NCBI GenBank assembly: GCA_964360965.1
Contig: CAYHYM010000003.1
Coordinates: forward strand, 29-64,028
Length of the DNA stretch: 64,000 bases
Origin: an uncultured Gammaproteobacteria bacterium
GTDB lineage: Bacteria > Patescibacteriota > Microgenomatia > Daviesbacterales > UBA10151
Reading direction: 5' to 3'
The position numbers were made by a program, and so were the translations under genes. Below, in pieces: positions 3,562 to 52,662 of this stretch. Within the stretch, counting starts at the first letter, position 1, and every line of letters begins with the position of its first letter. The notes below the pieces were generated by a model, which worked only from the letters and a program-made list of their open reading frames with translations, did no database searches and was not told the DNA's origin.

Positions 3562-4310
3562 ACACCCTTGGGGTGTATTCGTATTGACACCTGCGGATAT
3601 TTGAGATATGCTAGGCTCAAATGCCTTCCAGAATTTTCCCCTTTGTAAATGGGCAGTATTACCACATCTATAATAGGGGTGTAGAAAAAAGAACTATCTT
3701 TGAAAAAAGCTGGGACTACTCAAGACTTAAAAAGACAATGCAGTATTATCAGCTTCTCGGCCCTAAGCCAAGGCTATCTAAATTCCTATTAGGCTCAATT
3801 CTCAAGCCAGATACCAATAAGAAGATCGTGGACATTATTTGCTACTGTTTAATGCCAAATCATTTTCACTTTCTTATAAAACAGTTAAAAGAGGGTGGAA
3901 TTACAGAATTTGTTAGTAAATTAAGTAACAGTTATACCAAATATTACAATGTAAAATATAAACGGGTTGGACCCTTACTACAGGGAGAATTTAAAGCTGT
4001 ATTAGTAGAATCTGATGAACAATTGCTACATGTTTCTCGCTATATTCATTTGAACCCGATTGCTTCTTTTTTGGTAAAAGACTTAAATCTCTATGAATGG
4101 TCTTCTTATAAAGAATATACTAATAACCATAAAGGTATTTGTAATACGGAAGAAATTATGGGCTTTTTTAAAGATAGCTCCTCTTATCAAAAATTTTGTT
4201 TGGACCAAGTTGAATATGCCCAAAAACTGGAACTAATTAAGCATCAATTATTGGAAGAAGAATAATACACCCTTGGGGTGTATTTGTATTGACACCTGCG
4301 GATTTTTGAG
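3562..4310 (+). mobile_element. IS200/IS605-like minimal element. A Y1 transposase gene is flanked by ~44-bp imperfect direct repeats, each starting with a small hairpin.
   Basis: Left copy 3562..3606 ACACCCTTGGGGTGTATTCGTATTGACACCTGCGGATATTTGAGA and right copy 4267..4310 ACACCCTTGGGGTGTATTTGTATTGACACCTGCGGATTTTTGAG. Each begins with the palindrome ACACCC-TTG-GGGTGT. Subterminal hairpins in the same orientation at both ends are the hallmark of IS200-family ends. Confidence 0.6.
3621..4265 (+). CDS. tnpA: HUH Y1 tyrosine transposase (IS200-like / RAYT-like TnpA)
   Basis: 214 aa. HuH motif CYCLMPNHFHFLIK, catalytic Tyr region LHVSRYIHLNP, N-terminal YHIYNRG typical of PF01797 Y1_Tnp. It is longer than canonical 140-aa IS200 TnpA, closer to the RAYT-like subgroup. 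Confidence 0.75.
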   Translation: MPSRIFPFVNGQYYHIYNRGVEKRTIFEKSWDYSRLKKTMQYYQLLGPKPRLSKFLLGSILKPDTNKKIVDIICYCLMPNHFHFLIKQLKEGGITEFVSKLSNSYTKYYNVKYKRVGPLLQGEFKAVLVESDEQLLHVSRYIHLNPIASFLVKDLNLYEWSSYKEYTNNHKGICNTEEIMGFFKDSSSYQKFCLDQVEYAQKLELIKHQLLEEE

Positions 4311-4343
4311 AAAATTTGACCGGCACCCTTGAAGGGAAGATAA

Positions 4344-8042: not shown

Positions 8043-10934
8043 GTGAAATTGCTGCCCCTTTTAATTTTTCTATTCACTTTTATTACGCTTCCCTCCCCAA
8101 TCTATGCTGTCACCATTGCTGAGCAAACCCAAAACTTTGGAAATCAGCTAAATGTCTGGCAGGCAATTCAAGAGCTGGGCAGCTTGCTTGATGGCAAGGC
8201 CGGTTCCTTTACTTTCAGGGTACGTACCACTAAGACCAACCTTGAAATGTTTGATTATACTGCTCAAAATACCAAGATTTATGATAAGGACACAAACACC
8301 AAAGTTGCCAACGGCTGCCACACAGGTTCTGCCTCTGATCCTTTGGGTGGCTTGACCTTTACCACAGCCGGGGTACCTGTTGGTTTTGAAGACGTGACAA
8401 TTGATTTTTCATCCTGTAACTCTTACTCCTTCACTCAAGGACATAAATATTTAATTATTATAAGTAATGCCAATATGGCACAATTTGGTGGAAGTTTAAT
8501 CTATTTTGCAGCCGCTGCTTACGGGTCAAGCAGCACTGACCATTTTAATGGTGGGGGTTTAAGGTATGCTTTTGATAATAAATTTTGCAACCCAATCACT
8601 TACCAATGGAATTCTTCAATAAGTAATGCAAATGAAGACCAATGTAATATTTGGACCACACCCAAAGATGACCTTTATTTTATTTTAGCCAACACCTCCC
8701 CTCCTCCCAAAACCCCGGTTATTTTTATACCCGGGATAGGGGGGTCTGAATTTAAAGCAGGGCAGGATATTATCTGGGCAGATCAGGATGATGGACATGG
8801 AGGAAAGTTTTCTCATGCTTATACATCTGGGGAGAAAATTTGGGTCAATGAGGGTAAGGCGGCCGAACTGGGGGAGGATGATTATTTTGATGTATTAAGA
8901 TTAAAATCTGATGGAGTAACTTCTGAGGCTTCTCTAAGTTTAACAGGAGATCTGACTTCTTTTGGTTATGGGGATATTGATTCATTTTTTACCGGATTGG
9001 GGTATGAGAAAGGTAAAAATTTCTTTGTTTTTCCCTATGATTGGAGAAAGGATGTGAGAGTTACCAAAGATAGTTTGGATGCCTTAATTGAGGAGGCAAA
9101 AACCAAATCAGGACAAACTAAGGTTAATCTAGTGGCCCATTCCATGGGAGGCTTGGTAGCCAGATATTATATTGCTGATTCAGGGAGAGCTTCTAAGGTT
9201 AATAAGCTAATTTCTATGGGAGTTCCCCATTTGGGAGCAACAAAAGCTTTGAAAACCCTAATGTATGGAGATGAAATAAAGAAGGATGTATTTGGTATAT
9301 TTGCACTAGGAATCCCATCAAGTGAGGTCAAAGACGTATTCCAAAATCTCCCCAGCGCATTCCAGCTTTTACCTTCCAAAAAATTTTATGATTTCTATGA
9401 CAACTCTGCTCAGAAACCTTTCCCGTTTAGCGACGAAAGAGATATTGACAGTAACAAAGTTACTGGAGCACTAAACTTTATTCAAATCAAAGGATTGCTG
9501 GAAAATTTAATACACAATATGACAGTATTTGACTTTGGAGAACAACTTCATAATTTAGCTGATCCATTACTTAATCAATCTTCAACAGTCAAGTTGTATA
9601 ACATAGCTGGTACCAGCCAACCTACTTTAGGACAAATCAGGGAAACGTGGTTAATACAGTGGCCTATTAATTTAATCTCTATAAGAGACGAGGTCTTTAT
9701 TAACGGAGACAATACAGTGCCGCTCTATAGTGCCTCACTTAAAAGTGATTCTTTAGATTTTTCAGGCAGTGCAACTATTTATTATGTGGAACAAAAACAC
9801 AGTGATCTGGTTTCAAAAGATGGCACAGCTATGCAAACAGTAAAGTCTATTTTAGAAGAATCTGATTTACCTGTTGAGGTTAAATCCGAAAAGATTGATT
9901 TGGAAGGACAGCATGTGTCTTTGGATGATGGGGAATTGGAATTGTATGATGATGAAGGAAAACATACTGGCATAAAAGATGACGGAGAAATTGAAACCAA
10001 TATTCCTGAAACTTTTTATTCAACATCAGGTAAAACTAAACATGCTTTTGTTAAAAAGAAAGCTAAAAAAGTGAAAGTGAGGGCTACTCGAAAAAAGAAA
10101 ACCTCATCAGATCCCAAAACAACCAATCTAAAAATTAGAAGTTATAAACAGGATAAGGTTTCTAAAACCACAATTTATAGAGATGTCTTAATTGCTGAAA
10201 CAGCCAAAGTTGAATTTGATCTGGATCCAGCAATTGATACTTCTCCAACCCTTGCATTATTTCCTGATTCCACCAAATCTGACAGCACAAATATTAATCT
10301 CACTAGTGAGGTATCAGGTGGTCCTGCCTTAGACCAAACATCACCTTCTACAAAGATAGAACTATCAGGAAGTAAAGATTCATTAGGCAAGTTTATATCC
10401 TCTGCCACAGTAACCTTAAGTTCCTCTGATTCTGAATCGGGAATTTTAAAAACAGAATATAGTTTGGATAATGGTAAGACTGTTCAAACGTACAGTAATC
10501 CATTCACTGTCTCAACTCCTGGTAAAACTACTTTACAGGTAAAGTCTATTGATAAATTAGGTAATGAGGAAATACCACAAGAAAAGGTCATAGAGATTGC
10601 TTCATCAACTTCTAGCTCATCTTCTTCCAGCTCATCTGGCAATAACTCATCAAGCACTGCACAATCCACCTCTGAGGAGTCCGTTCCGGTCACCTCCGAG
10701 GTGTTACGAAGTGACTCCTCGGAGGTGGATAGCACAAGCTCATCACAAGATATCCTGGGACTTAGCACCCAAAATCCAGTTTCATCTGCTCAATTAAAAC
10801 CTCTAACTAACAACCAACCTAATCTACTAACAAGCAGTATGTTGATCTTAACAATGTTTATGGCCCAAAGCGGAATAATTCTTTTGTCATCCTTAAGATC
10901 AGTTCTTTCTTTTCTTAAACCAACCCCAAAATAG
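8043..10934 (+). CDS. Large secreted, C-terminally membrane-anchored alpha/beta-hydrolase (lipase/LCAT-like) with Ser-rich low-complexity linker
   Basis: 963 aa, GTG start. Signal peptide MKLLPLLIFLFTFITLPSPIYA, PVIFIPGIGGSEF oxyanion region, nucleophile elbow VAHSMGGLVARYY, Lys-rich segment, poly-Ser stretch and C-terminal hydrophobic anchor LLTSSMLILTMFMAQSGIILLSSL. Confidence 0.6.
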   Translation: MKLLPLLIFLFTFITLPSPIYAVTIAEQTQNFGNQLNVWQAIQELGSLLDGKAGSFTFRVRTTKTNLEMFDYTAQNTKIYDKDTNTKVANGCHTGSASDPLGGLTFTTAGVPVGFEDVTIDFSSCNSYSFTQGHKYLIIISNANMAQFGGSLIYFAAAAYGSSSTDHFNGGGLRYAFDNKFCNPITYQWNSSISNANEDQCNIWTTPKDDLYFILANTSPPPKTPVIFIPGIGGSEFKAGQDIIWADQDDGHGGKFSHAYTSGEKIWVNEGKAAELGEDDYFDVLRLKSDGVTSEASLSLTGDLTSFGYGDIDSFFTGLGYEKGKNFFVFPYDWRKDVRVTKDSLDALIEEAKTKSGQTKVNLVAHSMGGLVARYYIADSGRASKVNKLISMGVPHLGATKALKTLMYGDEIKKDVFGIFALGIPSSEVKDVFQNLPSAFQLLPSKKFYDFYDNSAQKPFPFSDERDIDSNKVTGALNFIQIKGLLENLIHNMTVFDFGEQLHNLADPLLNQSSTVKLYNIAGTSQPTLGQIRETWLIQWPINLISIRDEVFINGDNTVPLYSASLKSDSLDFSGSATIYYVEQKHSDLVSKDGTAMQTVKSILEESDLPVEVKSEKIDLEGQHVSLDDGELELYDDEGKHTGIKDDGEIETNIPETFYSTSGKTKHAFVKKKAKKVKVRATRKKKTSSDPKTTNLKIRSYKQDKVSKTTIYRDVLIAETAKVEFDLDPAIDTSPTLALFPDSTKSDSTNINLTSEVSGGPALDQTSPSTKIELSGSKDSLGKFISSATVTLSSSDSESGILKTEYSLDNGKTVQTYSNPFTVSTPGKTTLQVKSIDKLGNEEIPQEKVIEIASSTSSSSSSSSSGNNSSSTAQSTSEESVPVTSEVLRSDSSEVDSTSSSQDILGLSTQNPVSSAQLKPLTNNQPNLLTSSMLILTMFMAQSGIILLSSLRSVLSFLKPTPK
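10691..10728. repeat. Family-A GC-rich palindromic module (CACCTCCGAGG-N15-CCTCGGAGGTG) inserted in-frame in the Ser-rich region of the lipase-like CDS
   Basis: 11-bp stem, 15-nt loop. Encodes VTSEVLRSDSSEVDS. The same arm sequences recur at 37955, 40767, 49149 and 54015. Confidence 0.6.
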
Positions 10935-14557: not shown

Positions 14558-17161
14558 GTGGAAAAGGCATATACAAAAACCGCTGAGCAAGTTATTAAAG
14601 ATCTAAAAACTGATCTTAAAGACGGGCTGACATCAGCCCAAGCCCAAAAAAGATTAGCACAATATGGCCCAAATGTCTTAAAAGAAGAGATCGGTAAAAA
14701 TCCTTTGCTGATTTTATTTTCCCAGTTCAGAAGCTTTTTGGTGATTATTTTAATAGTTGCCTCCATCATCTCATATCTGTTGGGTCATAGCCTTGACGCC
14801 TTGATGATTTTGGCCATTGTCGCAATTAATGCTGTCTTAGGCTTTATTCAAGAATATCGGGCAGAGGAATCCATCAAACATCTGAAAAAACTGGTCACTG
14901 CCAATGTCCAGGTGATCAGAGATGGCCGGTTAGTAGAGATTCCCCACTTTCAACTGGTACCAGGAGATTTGGTAATTGTAAGTGACGGCCAAAAAGTCCC
15001 GGCTGATTTAAGAGTAACACAATCCATCTATCTGCACCTTAATGAAGCACCACTGACCGGAGAATCAATTCCTGTCACCAAAGTAACAGACAGCTTACCC
15101 CCCAACACCAACATAGCTGATCAAAAAAATATGCTTTTTGCAGGCACCTCAGTCTCTTCTGGCAAGGGTATGGGGATAGTTGTATCAACAGCTATGAAAA
15201 CAGAAATTGGCCAAATTGCCCATCTGGTATCACAAGAGGTGGAACCAGAAACCCCCCTCAAACAAAAGCTGGATCGTTTGGGCAAACTTTTGGGCAGAAT
15301 TGTTTTAATCGTCGCCTCCTTAATTGCCCTGGAACAAATAATATTGGGTGAACCAGTTATTGAAGCTCTCATCTCATCAGTGGCCTTGGCAGTAGCAGCC
15401 ATACCAGAAGGCTTGCCTGCCATTGTCACCATCTCTTTGGCTTTGGGCACCAAAAGGCTTCTTAAACAACGTGCCTTAATCAGAAATTTGCCTGCCTCAG
15501 AAACCTTAGGATCAACAGAGGTAATATGTGTAGACAAAACTGGCACCCTAACAGAAGGAGAAATGTCTGTGAGAGAGATTTACGGCGCAAATATTCAAAA
15601 AATTCTCACTGTGGGGATACTTTCAAGCAATGCCAGAAAAAATAAAGACAGAATTATTGGAGATGCCACTGAGGCAGCTTTAATACAAAAGGCCATAGAT
15701 TCAGGACTGGATCAGGATCAATTGGATAAAAAATTTCCTCGAGTACAAGAAATACCCTTTTCTTCAGACAGAAAAATGATGACCACCATCTGCAAAGAGG
15801 ATAATCAATACCGGGTGACCAGCAAAGGTGCAACCGAAGTCATCTTGGACAAATGTTCACATATTGAGGAGAATGGCCAGGTTATACCATTAACTGAGGA
15901 GAAAAAAGAACAGATTTTAAAAGTTAATGACCAAATGGCCCAAGATGCCTTGAGGATTTTGGCTTTTGCCGAGAAGCGCATACACCTTGCAGGTGAAGAA
16001 AATGCAGTTACACCTGCGAGGTGGAAAGAAGAAGAGATAGAAAAAGATCTGATCTTTCTAGGCCTTCAGGGAATGATGGATCCACCAAGGGAAGGTGTTA
16101 AAGAGGCTATTGAGGTTTGTCAAAGAAAAGCAGGAATTAAAGTAATAATGATCACCGGAGATCACCTGTTAACTGCCCAATCCATTGCCAAAGAAATTGG
16201 TATCAAGGGGGAGAGCATCAGCGGTCAAGAGCTTGACAATCTTTCTGAAGAAGAATTTGTCAAAAAAGTTCAGGAAATTAACATCTATGCCAGGGTCAGC
16301 CCCACTCATAAAATTAGGATCATCAAGGCCCTAAAAGCCCGCGGTCATCAGGTGGCCATGACAGGTGATGGGGTCAATGATGCTCCGGCCTTAAAGGCTG
16401 CTGATACTGGGGTGGCCATGGGGGTTACGGGCACCGACGTGGCCAAAGATGCCTCAGATATAATTTTACTGGATGATAATTTCACCACCATTGTGCAAGC
16501 CATAAAAGAAGGAAGGACAATTTTTGACAACATCAGAAAATTTGTTAATTACCTGTTATCTTCAAACATTATGGAAATAATGGTGATATCTTTGGCTGTA
16601 ATTTTGGGTGGGGGACATTTGCCGCTTTTACCTATTCATCTTTTATGGATCAATCTGGTCACTGATGGGCTGCCGGCCCTGGCTTTGGGAGTTGATCCGC
16701 CCAGAGCAGACATCATGAGTTTACCGCCCCAAAATTTTAGGCAGCAGATATTGGGTGGTAGATCTTTAGGGCCTTTAACTGCCGTCAGTGTACTTTTAAC
16801 CATAGCTATCCTTGCTATTTTCTTTATCTATCAAAAAGATCCAATTTATGAACAAACCATGGTTTTTACATCCATTGTCTTTTATGAAATGTTAAGAATT
16901 ATTGCCATAAGGTCTGAATATAAACTGCCGTTTTTCTCAAATAAATTCTTAATCCTTGCTATAGCTGGATCATTAGCACTGCATCTTGTGATTCTTTATC
17001 TACCATTCTCTTTTGCAGGAGTAACATTGCAAGAATTATTTAAAGTTCAGCCGTTAAATCTTTTTGACTGGGTACTACTGCTTGGAATTGGCATCTTCCT
17101 TCTATTTATCATGAGAATCTTGGTCATTACACCTGTATTTAATTTTTTAAAAAAGCCTTGA
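14558..17161 (+). CDS. P-type cation-transporting ATPase, type IIA (Ca2+/SERCA-like)
   Basis: 867 aa. DKTGTLT, PEGLPA, TGDGVNDAPAL, 10 TM segments. Carries an in-frame palindromic insertion at 15983..16023. Confidence 0.9.
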   Translation: MEKAYTKTAEQVIKDLKTDLKDGLTSAQAQKRLAQYGPNVLKEEIGKNPLLILFSQFRSFLVIILIVASIISYLLGHSLDALMILAIVAINAVLGFIQEYRAEESIKHLKKLVTANVQVIRDGRLVEIPHFQLVPGDLVIVSDGQKVPADLRVTQSIYLHLNEAPLTGESIPVTKVTDSLPPNTNIADQKNMLFAGTSVSSGKGMGIVVSTAMKTEIGQIAHLVSQEVEPETPLKQKLDRLGKLLGRIVLIVASLIALEQIILGEPVIEALISSVALAVAAIPEGLPAIVTISLALGTKRLLKQRALIRNLPASETLGSTEVICVDKTGTLTEGEMSVREIYGANIQKILTVGILSSNARKNKDRIIGDATEAALIQKAIDSGLDQDQLDKKFPRVQEIPFSSDRKMMTTICKEDNQYRVTSKGATEVILDKCSHIEENGQVIPLTEEKKEQILKVNDQMAQDALRILAFAEKRIHLAGEENAVTPARWKEEEIEKDLIFLGLQGMMDPPREGVKEAIEVCQRKAGIKVIMITGDHLLTAQSIAKEIGIKGESISGQELDNLSEEEFVKKVQEINIYARVSPTHKIRIIKALKARGHQVAMTGDGVNDAPALKAADTGVAMGVTGTDVAKDASDIILLDDNFTTIVQAIKEGRTIFDNIRKFVNYLLSSNIMEIMVISLAVILGGGHLPLLPIHLLWINLVTDGLPALALGVDPPRADIMSLPPQNFRQQILGGRSLGPLTAVSVLLTIAILAIFFIYQKDPIYEQTMVFTSIVFYEMLRIIAIRSEYKLPFFSNKFLILAIAGSLALHLVILYLPFSFAGVTLQELFKVQPLNLFDWVLLLGIGIFLLFIMRILVITPVFNFLKKP
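15983..16023. repeat. Family-B 41-bp hairpin module (CACCTYGCAGGTG-AAGAAAATGCAGTTA-CACCTGCGAGGTG) inserted in-frame in the P-type ATPase CDS
   Basis: 13-bp perfect stem with 15-nt loop. 35 nt are identical to the intergenic copy at 40403..40443. Encodes RIHLAGEENAVTPARW in the cytoplasmic domain. Confidence 0.7.
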
Positions 17162-17554: not shown

Positions 17555-18112
17555 CTAAATCACTTTAGCCACTGATGCAATCATTAAAATTCCCACAGAG
17601 TTTGAGATATAGGATATTAAAATAAATCTTGCCTCGGACATTTTGGAAATTCCCAAAAGGGATACTCCCAGCTCATCAGGCAGTGGCGAGGCAATTATAA
17701 ATACACCTATTATGGGAAGAGTCCAAGCAATATATTTTGAATGAAGTAAAGCTTTTATATGCGATGTTTCTTGCTTGCCAAAAAGTATAGCCAACTCCTC
17801 TTGCAGACGACTCCTTACCAACTTAAAAACCAGATAGTCTCCCCAAACCGCTCCCACACCACCAATCAAAGCAATTGCCATGGGATGTAAATTTTGAGTC
17901 ATGATGGCAATAACTACTGTTGAGATGGCCACAGTGAATGAGGAAACAAAAAGCATCCCGGCAATTAAAGCTCCAATATATTCCAAGGATCCTAACCCTA
18001 AAAGCCAGTTTTTAAAGGCTTCATTTTGTGCCAATATTATGGCCAATAGAATACTTATTAAAACAGCAGTCAAATACGGATATCTCCACTTTTTCCAGAA
18101 ATTAGGCACCAT
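17555..18112 (-). CDS. Hypothetical polytopic membrane protein
   Basis: 185 aa, 5-6 TM segments. No confident family assignment. Confidence 0.45.
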   Translation of the reverse strand: MVPNFWKKWRYPYLTAVLISILLAIILAQNEAFKNWLLGLGSLEYIGALIAGMLFVSSFTVAISTVVIAIMTQNLHPMAIALIGGVGAVWGDYLVFKLVRSRLQEELAILFGKQETSHIKALLHSKYIAWTLPIIGVFIIASPLPDELGVSLLGISKMSEARFILISYISNSVGILMIASVAKVI

Positions 18113-19157
18113 GGTGTGCCTCCGCAGCCGGGCTTTGTTTTTTCCGCTTCAATAAATAATTATATGCAGCCAAGGCAGCCCTTACCCCATCACCTGCAGA
18201 AATATTATTTTGTTTATAAGGATCATTGGTGACGTCCCCACAAGCAAAAACCCCGGGATGGGAGGTGGTGGCATGTTGAAAATTCACCATGATTTGTCCA
18301 TGGTCATCAATTTGTACCAAATCTTTAACCATCTCAGAGTTAGGAACTGAGCCTATTTCCACAAATATCCCGCCCACTTCCAAAGTCTTTTCTTCTGCAC
18401 TTCCACTCCCGATGTGGGATTGAGCTGACACATCGGGAGTGTGTATTCGGTATTTGAGCCCGGTTACCAATGCTTCCCCCACCACTTCCACAGTTTGGGC
18501 ATTAAGAATAATTTGTCTAAGTTTGGGGTTTTTCTTGATTTCCTCAATAGTTGCCGGATCAGCTCTTAAGATCTCACCCCTCTCCATCAGGTAAATTTCT
18601 GATGCATAGGGAAAAAGGTCCTGTACTGCCTCGAGTCCGGCATTTCCTCCACCAACAACTGCCACCTTTTTATCGCGAAAAAGGGGAGCATCGCATGTTG
18701 AGCAATATACCACACCCCTACCTTCAAACTTATCCTCCCCTGGAATGCCTAGTTTCCTACGTCTGGCACCTGAGGCCACAATGACGGTTTTCCCCTGATA
18801 TACTTGTCCTGAGCCTGTCGAAGGATCTGTAGTCACCTCAAAATCACAGATCCTCCCAGCAGACACCTCGGATGGTGTGGACTCAGTAGACCTGCATGCA
18901 ACAGATTTTACCTTCACCACCTTTTCTGTTTTTATATCAACAATATCTGGATAAGCTCTAACATGAGCTTCCAGTTTTTTAGCTAAATTGAGTCCAGAAA
19001 TATGTACCTCTCCTATCCAGTTTTGAATATCATCTGAGACAATTGACTGCCCGCCAAAAGATTCTGTAATAAGGAGAGTTTTCATCTGCTTTCTTGCCGC
19101 ATAAACAGCAGCAGCACAAGCTGCAGGTCCTCCACCAATGATAATTACGTCATACAT
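18102..19157 (-). CDS. trxB: Thioredoxin-disulfide reductase carrying two in-frame palindromic insertions
   Basis: 351 aa. FAD site IIGGGPAACAAAVYAAR, redox-active YCSTCD, NAD(P) site VAVVGGGNAGLE. It is ~40 aa longer than typical TrxB because of insertions at 18405..18440 and 18801..18824. Confidence 0.8.
   Translation of the reverse strand: MYDVIIIGGGPAACAAAVYAARKQMKTLLITESFGGQSIVSDDIQNWIGEVHISGLNLAKKLEAHVRAYPDIVDIKTEKVVKVKSVACRSTESTPSEVSAGRICDFEVTTDPSTGSGQVYQGKTVIVASGARRRKLGIPGEDKFEGRGVVYCSTCDAPLFRDKKVAVVGGGNAGLEAVQDLFPYASEIYLMERGEILRADPATIEEIKKNPKLRQIILNAQTVEVVGEALVTGLKYRIHTPDVSAQSHIGSGSAEEKTLEVGGIFVEIGSVPNSEMVKDLVQIDDHGQIMVNFQHATTSHPGVFACGDVTNDPYKQNNISAGDGVRAALAAYNYLLKRKKQSPAAEAHHGA
18405..18440. 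repeat. Family-D hairpin module (ACTCCCGATGTG-N12-CACATCGGGAGT) in-frame in trxB
   Basis: 12-bp perfect stem. Encodes SAQSHIGSGSAEE. A near-identical copy at 20492..20528 sits in an unrelated aldolase gene and encodes HTQSHIGSGTTKA. Confidence 0.7.
18801..18824. repeat. Family-E module (TACTTGTMCTGAGCYTGTCGAAG) in-frame in trxB
   Basis: Encodes DPSTGSGQV. Related copies lie at 24398..24429 (cop[11 protein letters not shown]) and 47781..47806 (DUF3048 protein, STSSVQV). Confidence 0.6.
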
Positions 19158-19159
19158 AC

Positions 19160-20119
19160 TTATACCTTAACAGGAGTAAGTGGAGGTTGTCCAGATAAAA
19201 CCGCAATTATATTTTTGGCTGCCAATTCTCCCATGGCTGAACGGGCTTCTATTGTTGCAGAAGCAATATGAGGAGTTAGAATCACATTTTCTAAATCCAC
19301 CATACCAGCAGCCCATTTAGGTTCTGTTTCACCCACATCTAAAGCTGATCCGGCAATGACTTTATTTTTCAAGGCTTCGACAAGCTCAGCCTCATCAACC
19401 ACAGGACCACGGGAAGTATTGACCAGATAGGCCGTGGATTTCATCATCTTCAGATGCTCGGCGTTAATTAAATGTCTTGTAGAATCAAGTAGGGGGACGT
19501 GAATTGAAACCACATCTGATGTGGAAAGTAGTTCTTCAGGTGTTGCTTTAAAGACTGCTCCCACCTTAGTTTCAAAATCCGGATTTTGTTTAACATCGTA
19601 ATAGATCACATTCATACCAAAACTTTTCCCAATCTCAGCCACCCTTGAACCAATCCTGCCGAGTCCTAAAACCCCCAAGGTTTTATCTTTAAGTTCCATC
19701 CCCAACATGACTTCCGGACCAAACTGCGCAGACTCTGTAAGAGCCAATTTATGGGCTTCAACAACTCTTCTTGAGATTGCCATTATCAGTGCAAATGTAT
19801 GTTCAGCAACAGCCTCTGTTAACACATCCGGGGTGTTGGTGACCACAATACTTCGCGACAAAAGGGCGGGGAGGTCTAAATTATCTGTACCTACAGCGTA
19901 ATTGGCAACTATTTTTAAATTAGCCCCAGCAGCGTTAATAAACTCCTGATCCACCTTATCAGTCAACATGCTCAACACCCCATCTGCACCCTGTATAAAA
20001 TTCAAAAGTTCCTGTCTTTCCAAAGGCCGATCATGTGGTGAAACCACCACTTCATACCCAGCATCCTGCAACATCTTTATCCCACTGCCGGGAATTTTTC
20101 TGGTAACTACAACTTTCAT
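19160..20119 (-). CDS. D-isomer-specific 2-hydroxyacid dehydrogenase (glycerate/phosphoglycerate dehydrogenase-like)
   Basis: 319 aa. NAD-binding GLGRIGSRVAEIGKSFGMNVIYYD, catalytic His region. SD GGAGGTG lies 7 nt upstream. Confidence 0.85.
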   Translation of the reverse strand: MKVVVTRKIPGSGIKMLQDAGYEVVVSPHDRPLERQELLNFIQGADGVLSMLTDKVDQEFINAAGANLKIVANYAVGTDNLDLPALLSRSIVVTNTPDVLTEAVAEHTFALIMAISRRVVEAHKLALTESAQFGPEVMLGMELKDKTLGVLGLGRIGSRVAEIGKSFGMNVIYYDVKQNPDFETKVGAVFKATPEELLSTSDVVSIHVPLLDSTRHLINAEHLKMMKSTAYLVNTSRGPVVDEAELVEALKNKVIAGSALDVGETEPKWAAGMVDLENVILTPHIASATIEARSAMGELAAKNIIAVLSGQPPLTPVKV

Positions 20120-20143: not shown

Positions 20144-20989
20144 CTAATCCATCATAACAACTTCTGTTAAAACTTTAAATCTTTCTGGTAAGGTTTTTGT
20201 TAAAAACTGTTGTTTTTCTTCCCCTTGCAAACTGCAAACCTCCTGCCACAGCGCCCTTCCTGCTAAAAAGCCTTTGGCCCCTGCTTTTATTGCAACTTTC
20301 AAATTTTCTTTAAAAACCTCAAAACTATCTCCTCCTGTAAGTAAAATCCATGGAGTATCACCTACCATATTGGTAATTTCCACGCATACATCCAAATCAC
20401 CCGGATATTCCAACTTCCACACATCTGGAACTATCCTAACCTCCTTAAAAATTTTCACTGACTCGATCACCAACCCTGCTTTAGTGGTCCCACTCCCGAT
20501 GTGAGATTGAGTATGCACATCGGGAGTGTACGTGACAATTTCTAAAAAAAATGGGAAATCATGAATCTTACAATCCTCTAAAACTTTCCTGGCAGTTTCC
20601 AGCTGTTTTTTTGCACTTTCTAAGTTTGGATTAAAATAAATCAAAAGTTTGGCCCCAGAAGCCCCCAGCTCTTTTAACTGCCCAACTATGTATTCCAACT
20701 CCGTAATTCTTTCTCCAGCCTGGTTAACGTATCCGCTTTTTTCTAAAGGTAATAAAAATGGTTTTGTTTGGCAAGCTTCTTTACATGCCTCTATGCCATA
20801 GTGTTCATCAATCAACAGTCCTGAAACTTGACCTGCTAAAGCATTGATAATTTCTGATTTCAGGGAAACAACAGTCTCATCAGAAACACTATCAGCATCC
20901 TGTGGATTTATTAATTTCTTAAATGATCCCCTATGGTCCAAAGCCAACATCAAAAATTTGCCATCAGATGTAAACTTACTTAAATCCAT
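20144..20989 (-). CDS. Class I aldolase of the tagatose-bisphosphate aldolase (LacD)/DhnA-like family
   Basis: 281 aa. N-terminal GKFLMLALDHRGSFKKL resembles LacD ALAFDQRG. Carries Family-D insertion 20492..20528. Confidence 0.55.
   Translation of the reverse strand: MDLSKFTSDGKFLMLALDHRGSFKKLINPQDADSVSDETVVSLKSEIINALAGQVSGLLIDEHYGIEACKEACQTKPFLLPLEKSGYVNQAGERITELEYIVGQLKELGASGAKLLIYFNPNLESAKKQLETARKVLEDCKIHDFPFFLEIVTYTPDVHTQSHIGSGTTKAGLVIESVKIFKEVRIVPDVWKLEYPGDLDVCVEITNMVGDTPWILLTGGDSFEVFKENLKVAIKAGAKGFLAGRALWQEVCSLQGEEKQQFLTKTLPERFKVLTEVVMMD
20492..20528. repeat. Family-D hairpin module copy, in-frame in the aldolase gene
   Basis: ACTCCCGATGTG-AGATTGAGTATG-CACATCGGGAGTG. Same stem as 18405..18440; the loop differs at 4 positions. 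Confidence 0.7.
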
Positions 20990-23265: not shown

Positions 23266-25272
23266 CTATATTTTCACTCTTTTTAATAATAACGAATTAG
23301 TAACAACAGATATAGAACTTGTGGCCATAGCAACTGATGCAAAAATCGGATTCAATAGTAAATGAAAGAATGAATAGAGAATTCCCATAGCAACAGGTAT
23401 CAGTATAATATTATATCCAAAAGCCCAAAACAGATTCAACTTAATAGTTCTCATGGTTTTTTGGGATAACTCAACTGCATGAGCTACGGATTTTAAGTCT
23501 TTATTGATTAGTGTAATATCAGCAGCTTCTATTGCTACATCCGTACCAGTTCCCATGGCAATGCCTATATCTGCAGCAGCCAGAGCTGGAGCATCGTTAA
23601 TCCCATCACCAACCATAGCAACTTTTTTACCCTCTGCCTGAATTTTTTTCACCTCTGCTTCTTTCTGATCTGGTAAGACTTCTGCCAAAACTCTTTTAAT
23701 ACCCACTTGATCTGCAATAGCGTCAGCAGTCCTCTTATTATCTCCTGTAATCATCACAACTTCTATGCCCATTTTTTGCAATGACTGCACACCTTCTCTG
23801 GCAGTGTCTTTTAAAGTATCGGCCACAGCAATTAAACCCGCTAATTTTCTATTTGCAGCCAGCATCATTACTGTCTTACCATCATTTTCAAATTTCTCAA
23901 TATCTGTGAGATTTTTTTCATAAATCACGTTCTCCCTGTCCATAAGCTTGCGATTTCCCAGGAAAACTTTCTGGTTGTTAACTACCCCTTCTATCCCAAA
24001 TCCAGGGATTGCTTTAAAATATTTAACCTTCGGAATAGTCTCACCCTCTATGCCAAGATTTCTTCCATACTCTAAAATTGCTTCTGCAAGAGAATGTTCT
24101 GAAGACTTTTCCAGAGCAACTGCCCGAGAAAGTATTAGCATATCACTGTTATACATTCTATTACCCGTTGTCTTAATATCTGTAACCACTGGTTTCCCTT
24201 TGGTGAGTGTTCCTGTTTTATCAAAAATCACGGTATTTATTTTATGGGCTGTTTCCAAGCTTTCTGCATCTTTTATTAAAATCCCATGCTCTGCCCCAAT
24301 CCCTGTTCCCACCATAATAGCTGTGGGAGTAGCCAGACCCATGGCACAAGGGCAGGCAATAATTAAAACTGCTATGGCATTTAACATGGCAAATAAGAGG
24401 GGGACCTGCCCTGAGCTTGTCGAAGGGCCAAACACATACCAACCGACAAATGTGACAATTGCCAGCATAATCACAATGGGCACAAAATAAGAGGAAATTA
24501 AATCTGCAATCCTTTGGATTGGAGCTTTAGAGCCTTGTGCTTCCTGGACTAACTTAATAATTTGAGCGAGCATGGTATCAGAACCTACTTTTGTGGCTTT
24601 ATAAGTAAAAGTGCCTGATTTATTAATTGTTGCCCCGACAACTATATCTCCTTTAGCTTTATCAACCGGCATACTCTCACCAGTTATCATTGACTCATCT
24701 ATAGAGGATTCACCTTCAACTATCACTCCATCTACTGGAATTTTCTCACCAGGTCTGACTCTGATTACATTACCAACCACAACCTGATCAATAGGTATAT
24801 CTTTTTCCTGACCATCAACTAGAACCCTGGCAGTTTTAGCTTGTAATCCAATTAATTTTTTAATAGCTTCAGAAGTTCCAGCTTTGGCTTTGGCCTCAAA
24901 ATAACGGCCAAGCAAAATCAAACCGATAATAATTGTGGAAACATCAAAATACGGTTCCGGTTTGATGCCAATATTTTCCATCACTTGAGGAAAAATAGTC
25001 ACAAAGGCGGAATAGGAAAAAGCCACACTAGTACCAATGGCAACCAGTGTGTCCATATTGGCAGTACGATGACGCAGTGCAGGCAGTGTTGCTTGATAAA
25101 ATTCCCATCCTGCCCAAAATTGAACTGGGGTGGCCAAAAGCAGTTGTACCCAGAAGTTTTGTAAAATAGTTGGGGAAGTTACCATTAATCCTGGAAAAGA
25201 ACCCCATAAAATCAGTCCACCTAAAACCAAACTTATTACCACTTTAATTTGTAAATCCTTCTCTCTGTTCAT
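23266..25272 (-). CDS. copA: Cu+-exporting P1B-type ATPase (no N-terminal HMA domain)
   Basis: 668 aa. TM CPC motif [29 protein letters not shown]. Carries Family-E insertion 24398..24429. Confidence 0.9.
24398..24429. repeat. Family-E module copy, in-frame in copA
   Basis: GGGGGACCTGCCCTGAGCTTGTCGAAGGGCC shares the CTGAGCTTGTCGAAG core with 18801 and 47781. Encodes [10 protein letters not shown] between TM helices. Confidence 0.6.
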
Positions 25273-33409: not shown

Positions 33410-33480
33410 CTGCGGAGCAGGGATTCGAACCCCAATACCGACATTCAGAGTGTCGTGTCCTACCATTAGACGACTCCGCA
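33410..33480 (-). tRNA. tRNA-Gln (anticodon CUG), no encoded 3' CCA
   Basis: Minus-strand read UGCGGAGUCGUCUAAUGGUAGGACACGACACUCUGAAUGUCGGUAUUGGGGUUCGAAUCCCUGCUCCGCAG. 7-bp acceptor stem (U1:A72 as in E. coli tRNA-Gln), D-arm GUCUAAUGGUAGGAC, anticodon loop CUCUGAA, T-loop UUCGAAU. The 3' end is followed by TAG, not CCA. Confidence 0.85.
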
Positions 33481-35907: not shown

Positions 35908-36805
35908 AATTATTAAATACCCATTCAATAATCTGTTTAGTTTCCTCAAATCTATCATCTGATCCCAAAAGCACTATTAAAACTTGATGTCCCTCTCGCT
36001 CCACCAGGGTAACTAAATTCTCTTTTGACTGCGGTGTTGTCCCTGTCTTCACTCCCAAAACTCCTATCACTTCAGATAAAAGTTTATTTAAATTTTGTAA
36101 TTTATGTTGATATTTTTTATCCAAAGATAAAACTTCTGTTTCTTTGGTGGCAAAAATTCTTTTCAGCTGAGAATCTTTTAAAGCCTCCTGAGTAATTTTG
36201 GCAATATCTTCCGCGGTTGAAAAATGATCTGCAGAATCAAAACCTGCCGGATTATCAAAATGGCTATTTTTAAGGGATAAACTAACCGCTTTTTCATTCA
36301 TTTTATTTATAAATTCTTTTTCTCCTCCGGCATAATTTTGGGCAATGGTATAGGCAGCATCATTGCCGGAAGGCAGCAACATTCCGAAAAGTAACGCCCG
36401 AAAAGTTAATGATTCCCCTTTTACCAAACCTATCCTTGTTCCGGATATTTGAGTTCCTTGATATATCAGCACCGAGTTGGGTCTAAAATATTCTACTCCC
36501 ACCAGCGCTGTCATAATTTTGGTAAGAGAACCAACAGCTAATTTTAAATTTGCATCTTTTTGATAAAGTACCTCATCTGTTGCCAAGTCTTTAATTAGCA
36601 TCGCCCGGGCAAAAATATAAGGAGGAGGAATATTTAAACTTACGGGAGGAAGATTGTATTTTTGCACTCCTGCAATTTGGGCATTATTTTGAGGAATTTG
36701 TAAAGATAAAAGTATATCCTCTGTTGAGTCTATTAGTATTGGAATGCTATTTACCACAATGATTGCACATATAATAAACACTACGGAATACAGATAATGC
36801 TTCAT
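35888..36805 (-). CDS. D-alanyl-D-alanine carboxypeptidase (S11), second paralog
   Basis: 305 aa. SxxK (GSLTKIMTA), SxN (LPSGNDAA), KTG (KTGTT). Confidence 0.8.
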   Translation of the reverse strand: MKHYLYSVVFIICAIIVVNSIPILIDSTEDILLSLQIPQNNAQIAGVQKYNLPPVSLNIPPPYIFARAMLIKDLATDEVLYQKDANLKLAVGSLTKIMTALVGVEYFRPNSVLIYQGTQISGTRIGLVKGESLTFRALLFGMLLPSGNDAAYTIAQNYAGGEKEFINKMNEKAVSLSLKNSHFDNPAGFDSADHFSTAEDIAKITQEALKDSQLKRIFATKETEVLSLDKKYQHKLQNLNKLLSEVIGVLGVKTGTTPQSKENLVTLVEREGHQVLIVLLGSDDRFEETKQIIEWVFNNFIWPAQ

Positions 36806-38160
36806 TTAGTTAATCTAACATCCACTCTTTCCATATCTCTGGGAAAAAGCGAAGCTTGCCTGATATTAGAAAGGTTTAAGACGTGCATGGTAATTCTTTC
36901 TAAGCCGAAAGAGAAACCTCCTTCTGACGGCATGCCAAATTTAAAAGCCATCAAATACATCTCAAAATCTTTAGGATCCATCCCATGTGCTTTAATTGAT
37001 TCCACTAATTGTTTATAGTCATTAATTCTTTGAGAACCACTCATTATTTCAACCCCTCTAAATAGAAGGTCATAGCTTAAGGAATAATCCGGATCTTTTG
37101 GATCAGGTTTGGTATAAAAAGGTTTTGATTGGGTTGGAAAATGAGTAATGGTCACAAAATCGCAGTGATGTTTTTCTTTTGCCCATTTGCAGATATCGAT
37201 CTCATCCTGCGGAGTTAAATCTTTTTCTTTCCTGTTATCCCTTCCAAACTCTTTTAATATAACTTCCTGGGCTTCCCTAAGTGTCAATCTCGGAATATCT
37301 CCGAAAGCTATCTGTTCCATTCCAAGTTCTTTTAAAATATCACCACATCCATTTTCAGTTTGCTTTAATGTCTCCACTGCAACTTTTTCTAAAAGATCCA
37401 AAAGATCTTCAAACTCCACAAAACCTATCTCACAATCCATTTGAGTAATTTCCGATAAATGTCTTGTTGTCACAGAAGGTTCTGCTCTATATGCTTTTGT
37501 GATTGTAAAAACTCTTTCAAGGGATGGAACCAACATTTGTTTGTAAAGTTGCGGGCTTTGGGTCAAAAAGGCTTTATGACCATAATAGTCAACTTTAAAC
37601 ACTTGTGCTCCTCCTTCTGTAGATGAGGCGACAATGGTTGGAACAACAATCTCAGTGCAACCAATTTCTTTTGCAGCCTTTCTGAATCCTTCCAAAATAC
37701 TCGCTTGAACTCTAAATATTGCTTTAACTTTTGGATGGCGCAAAGTGAGAGAGCGAAAATCCAAAAGGGTTGGTAGTTGTAAATCCAAATCTTTTCCTCC
37801 CATATCAAACGGTAGCTCTTCTGCTTTTGACAAGATTTCCATGGAATCTGCAGATATTTCTATTTCACCTGTGGGAATATTTTCATTGACCAGATTTTCT
37901 GGCCGCTTGTTAACTTTTCCAGTTATACAAACTACATCTTGGGAGTGTAGGCTACCCACCTCGAAGGTGGGCTCTGACTCCTTCGAGGTAGATTTTGTCT
38001 GTTGTGATACTACCACTTGTATTAATCCACTTCTATCTAAGATATCCAAAAATAAAATCTTGCCATGGTCACGGCGGGTTTGCACCCACCCACAAACCTC
38101 AACAGATTCCCCAACTTTTTTACTACAATCTAGAATGAGAGTACGTTCCATAAATGTCAT
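36802..38160 (-). CDS. aspS: Aspartyl-tRNA synthetase, archaeal/eukaryotic type (class IIb)
   Basis: 452 aa. N-terminal OB fold, class II motifs, motif 3 GGFSFGLERITMHVL. Carries a Family-A in-frame module at 37955..37989. Confidence 0.85.
   Translation of the reverse strand: MTFMERTLILDCSKKVGESVEVCGWVQTRRDHGKILFLDILDRSGLIQVVVSQQTKSTSKESEPTFEVGSLHSQDVVCITGKVNKRPENLVNENIPTGEIEISADSMEILSKAEELPFDMGGKDLDLQLPTLLDFRSLTLRHPKVKAIFRVQASILEGFRKAAKEIGCTEIVVPTIVASSTEGGAQVFKVDYYGHKAFLTQSPQLYKQMLVPSLERVFTITKAYRAEPSVTTRHLSEITQMDCEIGFVEFEDLLDLLEKVAVETLKQTENGCGDILKELGMEQIAFGDIPRLTLREAQEVILKEFGRDNRKEKDLTPQDEIDICKWAKEKHHCDFVTITHFPTQSKPFYTKPDPKDPDYSLSYDLLFRGVEIMSGSQRINDYKQLVESIKAHGMDPKDFEMYLMAFKFGMPSEGGFSFGLERITMHVLNLSNIRQASLFPRDMERVDVRLTK
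37955..37989. repeat. Family-A palindromic module in-frame in the aspS anticodon-binding domain
   Basis: CCCACCT-CGA-AGGTGGG plus outer arms ACCTCGAAGG/CCTTCGAGGT. Encodes STSKESEPTFEVGS. Confidence 0.6.
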
Positions 38161-40402: not shown

Positions 40403-40443
40403 CACCTCGCAGGTGAAGAAAATGCAGTTACACCTGCGAGGTG
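40403..40443. repeat. Family-B 41-bp hairpin module, intergenic copy (5' UTR of recJ, upstream of cca)
   Basis: CACCTCGCAGGTG-AAGAAAATGCAGTTA-CACCTGCGAGGTG. On the recJ mRNA the 3' arm GAGGTG lies 8 nt before the recJ ATG, so the SD is sequestered in the stem. Identical over 35 nt to 15983..16023. Confidence 0.7.
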
Positions 40444-47351: not shown

Positions 47352-48566
47352 TTAATAACTTATCTTTGCGCCTTCCGGCACAGTCTGAATCCAAATCTGA
47401 CCAGGATTAAATTCTATTTCCTTACCATTGCTACTGACAAATTTAGTTCTATCTACTCTTTTATTTTTAACCCATTTACCTTCTATCGCAACACCGTCTT
47501 GAAAAATTAAAGCTTTACCAGTTCCTGTTGTACCATAAAGTAAATGGATATTGCCCGGATATCCGTCATTGGCATTTGCCTCCCTCTGAAATTGAACAAC
47601 TATATTTTTGGCTGCAAGCTGACGCTTATTGTTTAAATCAGTTTGTTCTATACCGCCATTTTTTCTTTTATAAGAATTTGAGACAGCATCATAAATCCAC
47701 TCCACACCATATTCACCCTGTCCTTCCCAGAAACTGACTGTAATTTTACTTATTTGCCCTTTAGTCTCTTGTGGTGAGCGTACTTGTACTGAGCTTGTCG
47801 AAGTAGTCGAACCATTAAACTTCCAAGGTACATAATTTTTGTCCCAGGAATCTCCATCCTCATCTTTTTCTACCCACCCTCTTTTGGCTGCTGTCTCCCA
47901 CAGCTTTTGGGTGGTGGAATACATGGTATGTTCTGTTGCCACCGGATGACCCAGTCTTTGATAATCCCTCCAAAAAATAGGAAAACCAATGCTAAATTGA
48001 TTTAAATCTTTGATTTTATATGCAATAATTTGAGAAAGCGCATCTGCCGGACCTGGGGTATTTGCTCCGCCAACATGGGCATATAAAGCATCATATTCTG
48101 AAAGCCAGTCCAGATAATAAGTCCGAGCAGATCTGACCGGTCCCACCTGAATATCAGACAAACGACAGTAAAAAATAGCCATAAATCTGGTAATTCCACC
48201 TTCTGCCACCGCCTCATAAATAATATCTGCAGAGGATAATCCTGATTGAGGTCTGGCCTCTGAGTGATTTTCAATCATTATTGCCAAGGGCCTTCTTTTC
48301 TCCCAAGCCTCTTTAGCCGCCTTGGTATGTAGACTGCCATTTAAAGGACATTTTTCTGTTTTTGGCTCTTTTTCATCTTCTTCAACAACGCTTGAGGGTC
48401 CCGGCAAAGAACTGATTAGCTCTCCGTTTAATGAGGGTGAGGTAGAGGAGAATACCGAATAAGAAAGTGTGGCGGAGGCACCGTAAATAAAAATTGATAA
48501 AATTATACCTACCAAAATCTGCTGCAGTTTAGTTAATTTTTGAAATGTTTCCAAAATACTGTTCAT
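47352..48566 (-). CDS. DUF3048 (YerB-like) secreted protein
   Basis: 404 aa. Signal anchor, then RPLAIMIENHSEARPQSGLSSADIIYEAVAEGGITRFMAIFY...VGPVRSARTYY matches the YerB/DUF3048 core. Carries Family-E module 47781..47806. Confidence 0.6.
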   Translation of the reverse strand: MNSILETFQKLTKLQQILVGIILSIFIYGASATLSYSVFSSTSPSLNGELISSLPGPSSVVEEDEKEPKTEKCPLNGSLHTKAAKEAWEKRRPLAIMIENHSEARPQSGLSSADIIYEAVAEGGITRFMAIFYCRLSDIQVGPVRSARTYYLDWLSEYDALYAHVGGANTPGPADALSQIIAYKIKDLNQFSIGFPIFWRDYQRLGHPVATEHTMYSTTQKLWETAAKRGWVEKDEDGDSWDKNYVPWKFNGSTTSTSSVQVRSPQETKGQISKITVSFWEGQGEYGVEWIYDAVSNSYKRKNGGIEQTDLNNKRQLAAKNIVVQFQREANANDGYPGNIHLLYGTTGTGKALIFQDGVAIEGKWVKNKRVDRTKFVSSNGKEIEFNPGQIWIQTVPEGAKISY

Positions 48567-52375: not shown

Positions 52376-52662
52376 TGCCTAGGAAGAAGGATGATTGCTA
52401 CGTTCAGTTTACATGAACGTAGAGGAAAGTCCAGACAGCAAAGAGCAGGGTGTCCGGCGTAAGACGGAGGTCGTAAGATCCAGTTAGAGCAACAGTGACG
52501 AACCGAGGTAATGCTCGGATGAAACGGGCAATCCTCCCCGCTGCAATCCTAGAATCGGTCAGGTTGCTCGCCTGATGACCGGAGTAAGGAGCATTAGATA
52601 AATGATCATCAATCCTGACTAAATCGGGATGAACAGAATCTGGCTTACTCTCATCCTAGGCA
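52376..52662 (+). ncRNA. rnpB: RNase P RNA (bacterial type, compact)
   Basis: P3 hairpin 52398..52422, then GAGGAAAGTCCAGAC...AGAGCAGGGTG... (P4 5' strand, cf. GAGGAAAGTCCGGGC...CAGGGTGCC). Internal AGAGCAACAGTGACGAA (cf. GTGCAACAGAGAG). 3' ACAGAATCTGGCTTAC (P4 3' strand, cf. ACAGAACCCGGCTTA) then P1 closing TCATCCTAGGCA pairing with TGCCTAGG..ATGA at the 5' end. The 3' end overlaps the stop of the convergent AI-2E gene. Confidence 0.8.

Follow-up and report, generated by a model that had tools for sequence, protein, structure and literature searches.

We report that an intact reductase gene in a 64-kb window (64,000 nt of contig CAYHYM010000003.1) of the genome of Candidatus Daviesbacteria, uncultured groundwater bacteria of the candidate phyla radiation (CPR; Patescibacteria), has three insertion sites, each of them holding repeat DNA in frame. 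The gene is the open reading frame (ORF) 18102-19157 on the reverse strand, and its product is of the thioredoxin reductase (TrxR)/AhpF type. We consider it probable that this gene has made three in-frame acquisitions of repeat DNA behaving as miniature mobile DNA of the type of repetitive extragenic palindromes (REPs) and Rickettsia palindromic elements (RPEs). The acquired pieces would be a 38-nt hairpin of a family that we call D, a 23-nt solo arm of a second family, E, and the decayed remnant of a CACCTCSGAGGTG palindrome. We observed the insertions, the repeat families to which they belong, protein loops that are hit again and again, and hairpin arms that are conserved, and change in a compensatory manner, at the DNA level.

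CPR genomes are tiny and gene-dense, with little intergenic space. In-frame palindromic repeats are textbook knowledge for Rickettsia; in the searchable literature, which leaves out most subscription journals, we found no description of them in CPR. The REP-size elements described here sit in core enzymes (the reductase, an aldolase, P-type ATPases, a tRNA synthetase and UvrC). Such inserts lengthen proteins and can mislead the annotation and alignment of CPR proteins. Loops that are hit recurrently, arms that covary and a module that crosses phyla provide a natural map of insertion-tolerant loops, and the system is a tractable case for how such hairpins spread. The finding would gain further interest if the cross-phylum E word or the hot spots reflect a targeted mechanism. 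The three sites in the reductase, and the twins of D and E elsewhere in the window, are as follows.

18404-18441 (-), family D hairpin in the reductase gene, perfect 13-nt arms CACTCCCGATGTG / CACATCGGGAGTG and a 12-nt loop
18801-18824 (-), family E module CCTTCGACAGGCTCAGGACAAGT(A), a 23-nt solo arm encoding reductase residues 112-119, PSTGSGQV
18846-18896 (-), hypervariable loop C88-C104 of the reductase (CRSTESTPSEVSAGRIC), a decayed palindrome remnant
20491-20528 (-), family D twin in a tagatose-bisphosphate-type aldolase ORF (20144-20989), encoding TPDVHTQSHIGS
24404-24426 (-), family E twin in a CopA-like P-type ATPase ORF (23266-25272), PSTSSGQV
47781-47803 (-), family E twin in a DUF3048 protein ORF (47352-48566), TSTSSVQV

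Three insertion sites in an intact reductase

The reading frame of the reductase is intact over 351 amino acids and encodes an FAD-dependent pyridine-nucleotide disulfide oxidoreductase (Pfam Pyr_redox_2, 3.6e-40). Among the NCBIfam models, the TrxB equivalog TIGR01292 (TRX_reduct) gives 252.4 bits, under its cut-off of 343.45, and the AhpF model TIGR03140 gives 288.5 bits, under its cut-off of 502.9 and over profile positions 213-514 only. The nearest solved structure, at E = 1.7e-61, is 1fl2, the C-terminal catalytic core of E. coli AhpF; archaeal and bacterial TrxRs come next, and a Foldseek search with an AlphaFold model of the protein (mean pLDDT, the predicted local distance difference test, 71.6) likewise returned AhpF and TrxR structures, the latter at E of about 1e-28. 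The N terminus is the FAD domain, and the N-terminal double thioredoxin-fold domain of AhpF is absent. On these profile scores and structure matches, we class the protein as TrxR/AhpF-type without the AhpF N-terminal domain. It shares with low-molecular-weight thioredoxin reductases and with the C-terminal module of AhpF the two-domain FAD/NAD(P)H fold, the GxGxxG motifs and a CxxC in the NAD(P)H domain, and is 38% identical to residues 212-521 of E. coli AhpF, but differs from both by three extra loops and by a conserved cysteine pair, C88/C104, around the first of them. The initial annotation had called the gene an essential trxB. Its fold and CxxC agree with a thioredoxin reductase, but because the scores fall under both equivalog cut-offs (252 bits against 343 for TrxB), the label is only approximate, and it must be regarded, like the essentiality, as an assumption.

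We saw no sign of the altered function that had been suspected. None of the FAD, NAD(P)H and CxxC motifs is disrupted, and all are invariant among homologs; the glycine motifs read GGGPAA (residues 8-13) and GGGNAG (169-174), and the CxxC is CSTC (152-155). The homologs come from Candidatus Daviesbacteria and other Microgenomates/Patescibacteria. Several orthologs (P0005, P0007, P0010, P0011, P0026-P0029, P0061, P0067 and P0112) vary at the N terminus, where they have either a low-complexity extension of 40-50 residues (MDSQ...PVQPDIGSS...) or a glutaredoxin domain.

The segments had been described as two palindromic insertions. Only D is palindromic, since the reductase E copy has no inverted repeat and folds no better than its shuffles (z = +1.6), and the number of sites is three, the one at 18846-18896 having been overlooked. 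We counted the occupancy of each site among the 120 closest reductase homologs, taking the loop C88-C104 as site 1, the E site as site 2 and the D site as site 3. Site 3 has no insert in 116 of the 120, with 15 or 17 residues between fixed anchors; the four longer homologs each carry a different insert. Site 2 is in its short form of 14-15 residues in 113 homologs, and PSTGSGQ[VA] is present in five. At site 1 the loop ranges from 6 to 36 residues, the window copy having 25. The reductase of the window was also aligned to E. coli AhpF, which is gapped at all three sites. The proposal that the D and E segments are insertions, not lineage-wide features of the enzyme, is thus supported.

At the nucleotide level, family D is a net in-frame insertion of 36 nt (12 codons) encoding HTPDVSAQSHIGS, and the whole segment spans H239-G252 (HTPDVSAQSHIGSG). 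Aligned codon by codon with its closest relative, L015 (86% protein identity; L numbers designate the loci compared), the gene has exactly 36 extra nucleotides, which are missing from both L015 and L016. The E module stands where E-less alleles have AAAGGT (K-G), for a net gain of five codons. Neither D nor E shows a target duplication at its junctions in these codon alignments. The D site of L039 is occupied by another hairpin of the same CAC-N7-GTG form, CACCTTCCAGGTG...CACCTGGAAGGTG, and that of L040 by an unrelated hairpin-rich insert.

The inserts had been expected to lie in surface loops, and the AlphaFold model agrees with this for D and E. All three sites are predicted inter-beta-strand loops of low pLDDT: site 1 is a turn between strands E80-89 and E103-110, the E site a loop between E103-110 and E119-128, and the D site a loop between E231-239 and E254-259.

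Site 1 contains CACCTCGGATGG (18864-18875), which derives from a CACCTCSGAGGTG-type palindrome. An intact element, CACCTCCGAGGTG...CACCTCGGAGGTG, occupies the same site in L042, and L015 and L036 have one single 13-mer there. The window copy shows no significant fold (z = -0.9), and residues 92-100 have a pLDDT below 50 in the model. C88 and C104, which flank the loop, are nearly invariant, and P0053 and P0074 are without both the cysteines and the loop; the pair could staple the loop by a disulfide or bind a metal, as a feature peculiar to this reductase family.

The variable length of site 1 throughout the family is what one would expect if the segments were ordinary lineage-specific loop extensions. 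This explanation, or one by assembly artefacts, is almost certainly wrong: neither D nor E is present in the closest homologs (86% identity), unrelated genes contain the identical DNA, and E-like sequence is found in finished isolate genomes. For the reductase itself an artefact of assembly is excluded, as the identical protein was recovered in three independent Hainich groundwater assemblies (well H51).

Families D and E in unrelated genes

The D hairpin and its aldolase twin, both noted in the initial annotation, are real: the arms in the reductase gene are perfect over 13 nt, and the aldolase copy encodes YTPDVHTQSHIGSGTTKA as was proposed. The D pattern has two sites in the window and none in 100 shuffles, and, folded as RNA, the hairpin of the reductase gene reaches -23.6 kcal/mol (z = -4.7). 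The aldolase is the next-but-one gene from the reductase, and the two copies lie about 2 kb apart on the same strand of one gene string. Between 18403-18442 and 20490-20529, 35 of 40 nt are identical, part of the loop included, and the aldolase copy contains the related loop word CTCAATC. At least two other Daviesbacteria, L011 (CP066688.1) and L022, have exact D arms in their aldolase orthologs. The aldolase arms are invariant among the window, L011 and L022, genes whose third-codon identity is about 0.5. Other CPR have exact arms in genes for membrane proteins, where the frame differs (LPMW...TSGV), and a UvrC-like gene (L019 1285-1322) from the same Hainich H51 sample has them too. The L019 hairpin uses the reading frame of the reductase copy (YTPDVQLQFHIGS) and directly follows the GIY-YIG domain.

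The aldolase loop is itself a site of repeated insertion. It measures 16-45 residues across 120 homologs, with many different hairpin-coded inserts, and at the DNA level it has one of four perfect 13-bp stems, CACTCCCGATGTG, CAATCCCGGTTTG, CAAACCCGGTTTG or CACCTCCGAGGTG. The 12-nt loops of the first three stems are related, and because the aldolase variants encode TPDVSLQSHIGS, a TCAGC-like loop start is probably part of the consensus of the D family. On these sequence comparisons, the reductase and aldolase loops are recurrent hot spots, hit by different element families.

Template switching can create and perfect inverted repeats, and such switching during replication (quasi-palindrome formation) might have produced the D palindrome on the spot, within the reductase gene. 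The D-less alleles of L015 and L037 read GATCGTGTCAGC at the insertion site, 11/12 identical to GAT-GTGTCAGC, the arm end and loop start of the window hairpin (18412-18425); this likeness, which speaks for a local origin, could be target microhomology or coincidence. A local origin does not, however, account for the same 13-nt arms with a related loop in the aldolase 2 kb away, nor for the same arms in other genes and genomes. Being close to refuted by these shared arms, it is very improbable.

For family E, the twins claimed in the copA-like and DUF3048 genes were both recovered, and E, like D, belongs to a repeat family found in unrelated genes. The twins were found by mismatch-tolerant BLAST, a search for exact shared 11-mers having given none. 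The three copies use one common reading frame. Compared with A. fulgidus CopA (3j08), the CopA-like protein gains six residues through the module, which lies in the loop ahead of the CPC helix; in the DUF3048 protein the module sits between the two DUF3048 domains. The 16-nt core with at most two mismatches has four hits in the window against 0.05 expected. We discarded one of the four, at 19374-19389, as due to chance, since it falls in the conserved EAELVEAL motif of a 2-hydroxyacid dehydrogenase and is also present in L016. Further copies were found in L011 (PSTSSGQV), in a peptidase gene of L016 in another frame (LRQAQGK), and in an intergenic spacer of L016. With three copies in the 64-kb window, three in 21 kb of L016 and one in 8 kb of L011, the density is about one per 7-20 kb.

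The five reductase homologs that carry E are polyphyletic. In a tree built without the insert columns they belong to at least four clades, and their nearest neighbours are E-less. Four of the five carrier genes, with an overall third-codon identity of 0.43-0.56, share one and the same 26-nt block, GATCCTTCGACAGGCTCAGGACAAGT. All eight third-codon positions of the block are conserved in these four, which represent at least three clades. The fifth carrier, L036, has five synonymous changes, an ordinary synonymous decay. Identity among carriers ends at the edges of the module, with no extended identical flanks. One ancient gain followed by precise losses, recombination tracts and random independent insertion all fit this distribution poorly.

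We also scanned the E word, whose core is CTTCGACARGCTCAG, in viral and plasmid collections. The exact 22-mer occurs in 32 viral-collection contigs (L045-L076) with GC contents of 0.32-0.70, in several frames and both orientations; a core CTTCGACARGCTCAGG is common to several phyla over this GC range. Matches of 20-23 nt are present in finished replicons, at up to 12 places per record in Sphingobium and also in Polaromonas, Comamonas, Nitratireductor, Moraxella and cyanobacteria. In the Sphingobium plasmid AP027342.1 (L077, 300110-300200) E is one arm of a long intergenic hairpin with arms of about 26 nt (-27 kcal/mol as DNA, z = -6.5). It is because of this complete hairpin that we interpret the reductase module as the solo arm of a palindromic repeat superfamily. 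The E module is identical to 20-23 nt of one arm of this hairpin repeat of Sphingobium, other Proteobacteria and cyanobacteria, which contains CTTCGACAAGCTCAGGG; unlike the complete intergenic hairpin of Sphingobium, the window copies are solo arms within ORFs and mostly in one frame (PSTSSGQV). The Sphingobium element gave only sub-threshold hits to generic hairpins in Rfam, and we found no name for the cross-phylum family in the searchable literature, where searches for the encoded peptides and for the E DNA words returned nothing relevant. In cyanobacteria and in some viral contigs, E adjoins short tandem repeats such as CAGGGCAAG or GGGAACA.

This distribution leads us to ask whether E might be a functional DNA word, uptake-signal-like or recombination-related, that spreads by biased uptake or recombination. 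Such a word would explain why the 26-nt block is identical in four carriers of at least three clades, why E stands at one and the same codon in at least four clades, and why the 22-mer turns up in 32 viral-collection contigs and in replicons of cultured bacteria. Known DNA uptake sequences, though, occur about once per kb, far more densely than E; recombination tracts should have left extended identical flanks, which are absent; and the Sphingobium copy, as an arm of an ordinary long intergenic hairpin, fits mobile palindromic DNA. We regard a functional word as quite improbable.

CAC-N7-GTG hairpins and their arms

Family D belongs to a larger set. Perfect GC-rich stems of 10 nt or longer number six in the window, where 20 dinucleotide shuffles gave 0-1, and if up to two mismatches are allowed, six hairpins with 13-nt arms of the form CAC-N7-GTG define a superfamily of about 37-50 nt (10691-10727, 15983-16023, 18404-18441, 20491-20528, 37957-37990 and 40403-40443). 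All six lie within ORFs, except that the last may be in a 5' untranslated region. Those in further genes include the following.

15983-16023 (+), CAC-N7-GTG hairpin CACCTTGCAGGTG...CACCTGCGAGGTG, in frame in a P-type ATPase (HLAGEENAVTPARW)
10667-10727 (+), three-arm CACCTCYGAGGWG element within a 963-aa lipase-like ORF
37957-37990 (-), CACCTCGAAGGTG hairpin inside an Asn/Asp-tRNA synthetase ORF (36802-38160)

The ATPase hairpin has an orthologous copy in L041 and none in L016 or L040, and the arm sequence CACCTCYGAGGWG recurs in the aldolase loop of L041 and at reductase site 1 of L042. The 41-nt copy at 40403-40443 is 98% identical to that at 15983-16023. It lies 8 nt into a TTG-start ORF for a CCA-adding or poly(A) polymerase-type enzyme, and this start codon may be miscalled.

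At the protein level, a test of the inserts for codon palindromes did not discriminate (shuffle p of about 0.1 for four-codon stems), and the arms were therefore compared on the DNA of a few loci. In nine arm copies all 13 of the 13 pairs are 100% standard Watson-Crick with no G-U; four of the 13 show compensatory double changes, one-sided changes are zero, and the covariation score is reached by none of 500 shuffles. Strict Watson-Crick pairing without G-U, over what are few events, hints at a process acting on DNA and not at selection on RNA, and template switching between arms or recognition of the DNA hairpin could be this process.

Conservation and covariation of the arms at an orthologous site could instead mean that the hairpin is selected for function. 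The hairpins would then be cis-elements under selection, and the protein insertions a by-product: they might form a DNA or RNA structure bound by a protein, act on mRNA stability or processing, or pause transcription or translation, in the setting of a PfkB-aldolase-dehydrogenase-reductase gene string. The arms of the aldolase hairpin, invariant across species at a third-codon identity of about 0.5, suggest as much, as do the four compensatory double substitutions with 100% pairing, the ATPase hairpin kept between the window and L041, and the position of both D copies of the reductase and aldolase genes on one strand of the same string. A cis-element is nevertheless hard to reconcile with a reductase D copy that is unique among 120 homologs, with a single loop occupied by different families in different lineages, and with the same element in unrelated genes and different frames. 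Constraint at the RNA level would moreover tolerate G-U pairs, of which there are none; Rfam has no match at the insertion sites, and no T-tract follows the hairpin. On balance we think selection for a cis-function unlikely as the main explanation.

The CAC-N7-GTG hairpins and the E word might also be actively maintained DNA-level elements, recognised by a Y1/HUH protein or by another conserved protein. This would explain the Watson-Crick arms, the landing-pad loops shared across Daviesbacteria and the cross-phylum 22-mer together, and, if true, would amount to a hitherto undescribed system, common to several phyla, in which short DNA is inserted in a targeted way and protein loops are thereby remodelled. 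As it stands, we rate active maintenance as rather improbable.

Proposed mobilisation and comparison with known systems

The explanation that we favour, acquisition of REP/RPE-type miniature mobile DNA, would proceed as follows. Copies of the elements would arise at new loci, and those that survive would be copies that keep the frame, bring no stop codon and landed in tolerant surface loops. Because only in-frame, tolerated copies survive, the same few loops gather different elements in each lineage. Mobilisation would take place through single-stranded hairpin DNA, by a Y1 (HUH) transposase related to REP-associated tyrosine transposases (RAYTs) or to IS200, such as the one encoded in the window, and intramolecular template switching or recognition would uphold the perfection of the arms. 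That the elements are mobile, and in this sense 'selfish' as had been stated in the initial annotation, we infer from their distribution.

The candidate transposase is the following.

3621-4265 (+), Y1 (HUH) transposase gene, RAYT-like; the element spans 3562-4311, with 45-nt direct repeats on both sides

The protein scores 35.7 bits with Pfam Y1_Tnp (cut-off 23) and has the motifs NHFHFL and YIHLNP, with the HUH residues and the catalytic tyrosine in place. The flanking repeats (3562-3606 and 4267-4311) are 96% identical and contain the hairpin ACACCCTTGGGGTGT as well as the word CACCTGCG, which is also found in the arms of the hairpins at 15983 and 40403. The protein is 39% identical to a Y1 protein of L016 encoded near the reductase neighbourhood, and a further related Y1 gene is found near the same neighbourhood in L041; the Y1 genes of L016 and L041 are flanked by palindromes of their own. 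Since the flanking hairpin of the window gene is not dispersed, a direct link between this gene and D or E fails. The gene may still be considered a candidate for the mobilising enzyme, by a connection that is circumstantial and unproven.

Several observations weigh against the acquisition of mobile DNA. We could define neither a transposition event nor a target-site rule nor a target duplication, and copy number is low, with two to three copies per family in 64 kb. Scans of genome and metagenome collections turned up exact D hairpins in no more than a handful of genomes, many hits being unrelated terminator-like hairpins of high-GC taxa. L016 (21 kb) has no CAC-N7-GTG hairpin, so that their density must vary between relatives. 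The presence of E at one codon, with identical boundaries, in at least four clades is not easily the result of random insertion and selection, and the conserved arms discussed above could be explained by function. As for the Y1 genes, the sole NCBIfam hit of the window protein, REP_Tyr_transpos, stays at 47.8 bits, under the cut-off of 80. Its flanking hairpin occurs nowhere else in the 64-kb window, the palindrome of the L016 gene only at and within that gene, and the palindromes beside Y1 genes differ from D and E.

RPEs are palindromic repeats of about 100-150 bp that add 30-50 residues (Ogata et al. 2000, 2002, via PMC10969869, PMC3733652); one summary puts them at about 150 bp, in ten families, with 44 in-frame insertions in genes of R. 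conorii (PMC10969869). The resemblance is close: in both cases palindromic families lie in frame in unrelated housekeeping genes of a bacterium with a small genome, as is true of D, the fold and function of the host protein accommodate the insertions, and a gene may receive more than one. RPEs stand apart by their length, D having 38 nt (12 residues) and E 23 nt (5 residues). They also differ in that our elements occur in a CPR host and are presumably unrelated in sequence, that the same loops are hit recurrently by different families, and that the arms change in a compensatory manner at orthologous sites.

Di Nocera et al. (2013, PMC3733652) report REPs in the coding regions of uvrA, uvrB and recB, the last of which carries different REPs at nearly the same position in two Xanthomonas species. 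Like REPs and REPINs, the elements of the window are dispersed GC-rich palindromes of 20-40 nt with several families per genome, and, as with RAYTs, Y1/HUH transposase genes have short palindromes alongside; the D copy in a UvrC-like gene recalls the REPs published in DNA-repair genes. Unlike REPs, D lacks a GTAG/CGTC tag, having variable flanking bases and arm ends CAC/GTG; GTAG appears at D copies only by overlap (GTG|TAG), in two copies. REPs are also predominantly extragenic, whereas six of the six CAC-N7-GTG hairpins of the window lie in ORFs, and, in contrast to the flanking arrangement of RAYTs, the 45-nt repeats occur only at the Y1 gene, within the 64 kb of genome covered. Miniature inverted-repeat transposable elements were considered as a class for D and E and rejected, because there is no target-site duplication and the elements are shorter than 50 nt, against 70-300 bp.

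In L016, a related Daviesbacteria contig (5543-6203), a 13-nt palindrome, AGGGTCSGACCCT, stands on both sides of the Y1 gene and occurs twice more within its coding sequence, where it is read G-S-D-P. Elsewhere in the window, an RNase P RNA (class A, 125 bits; 52379-52663) and one tRNA gene (33410-33480) are the only Rfam matches above the gathering score.

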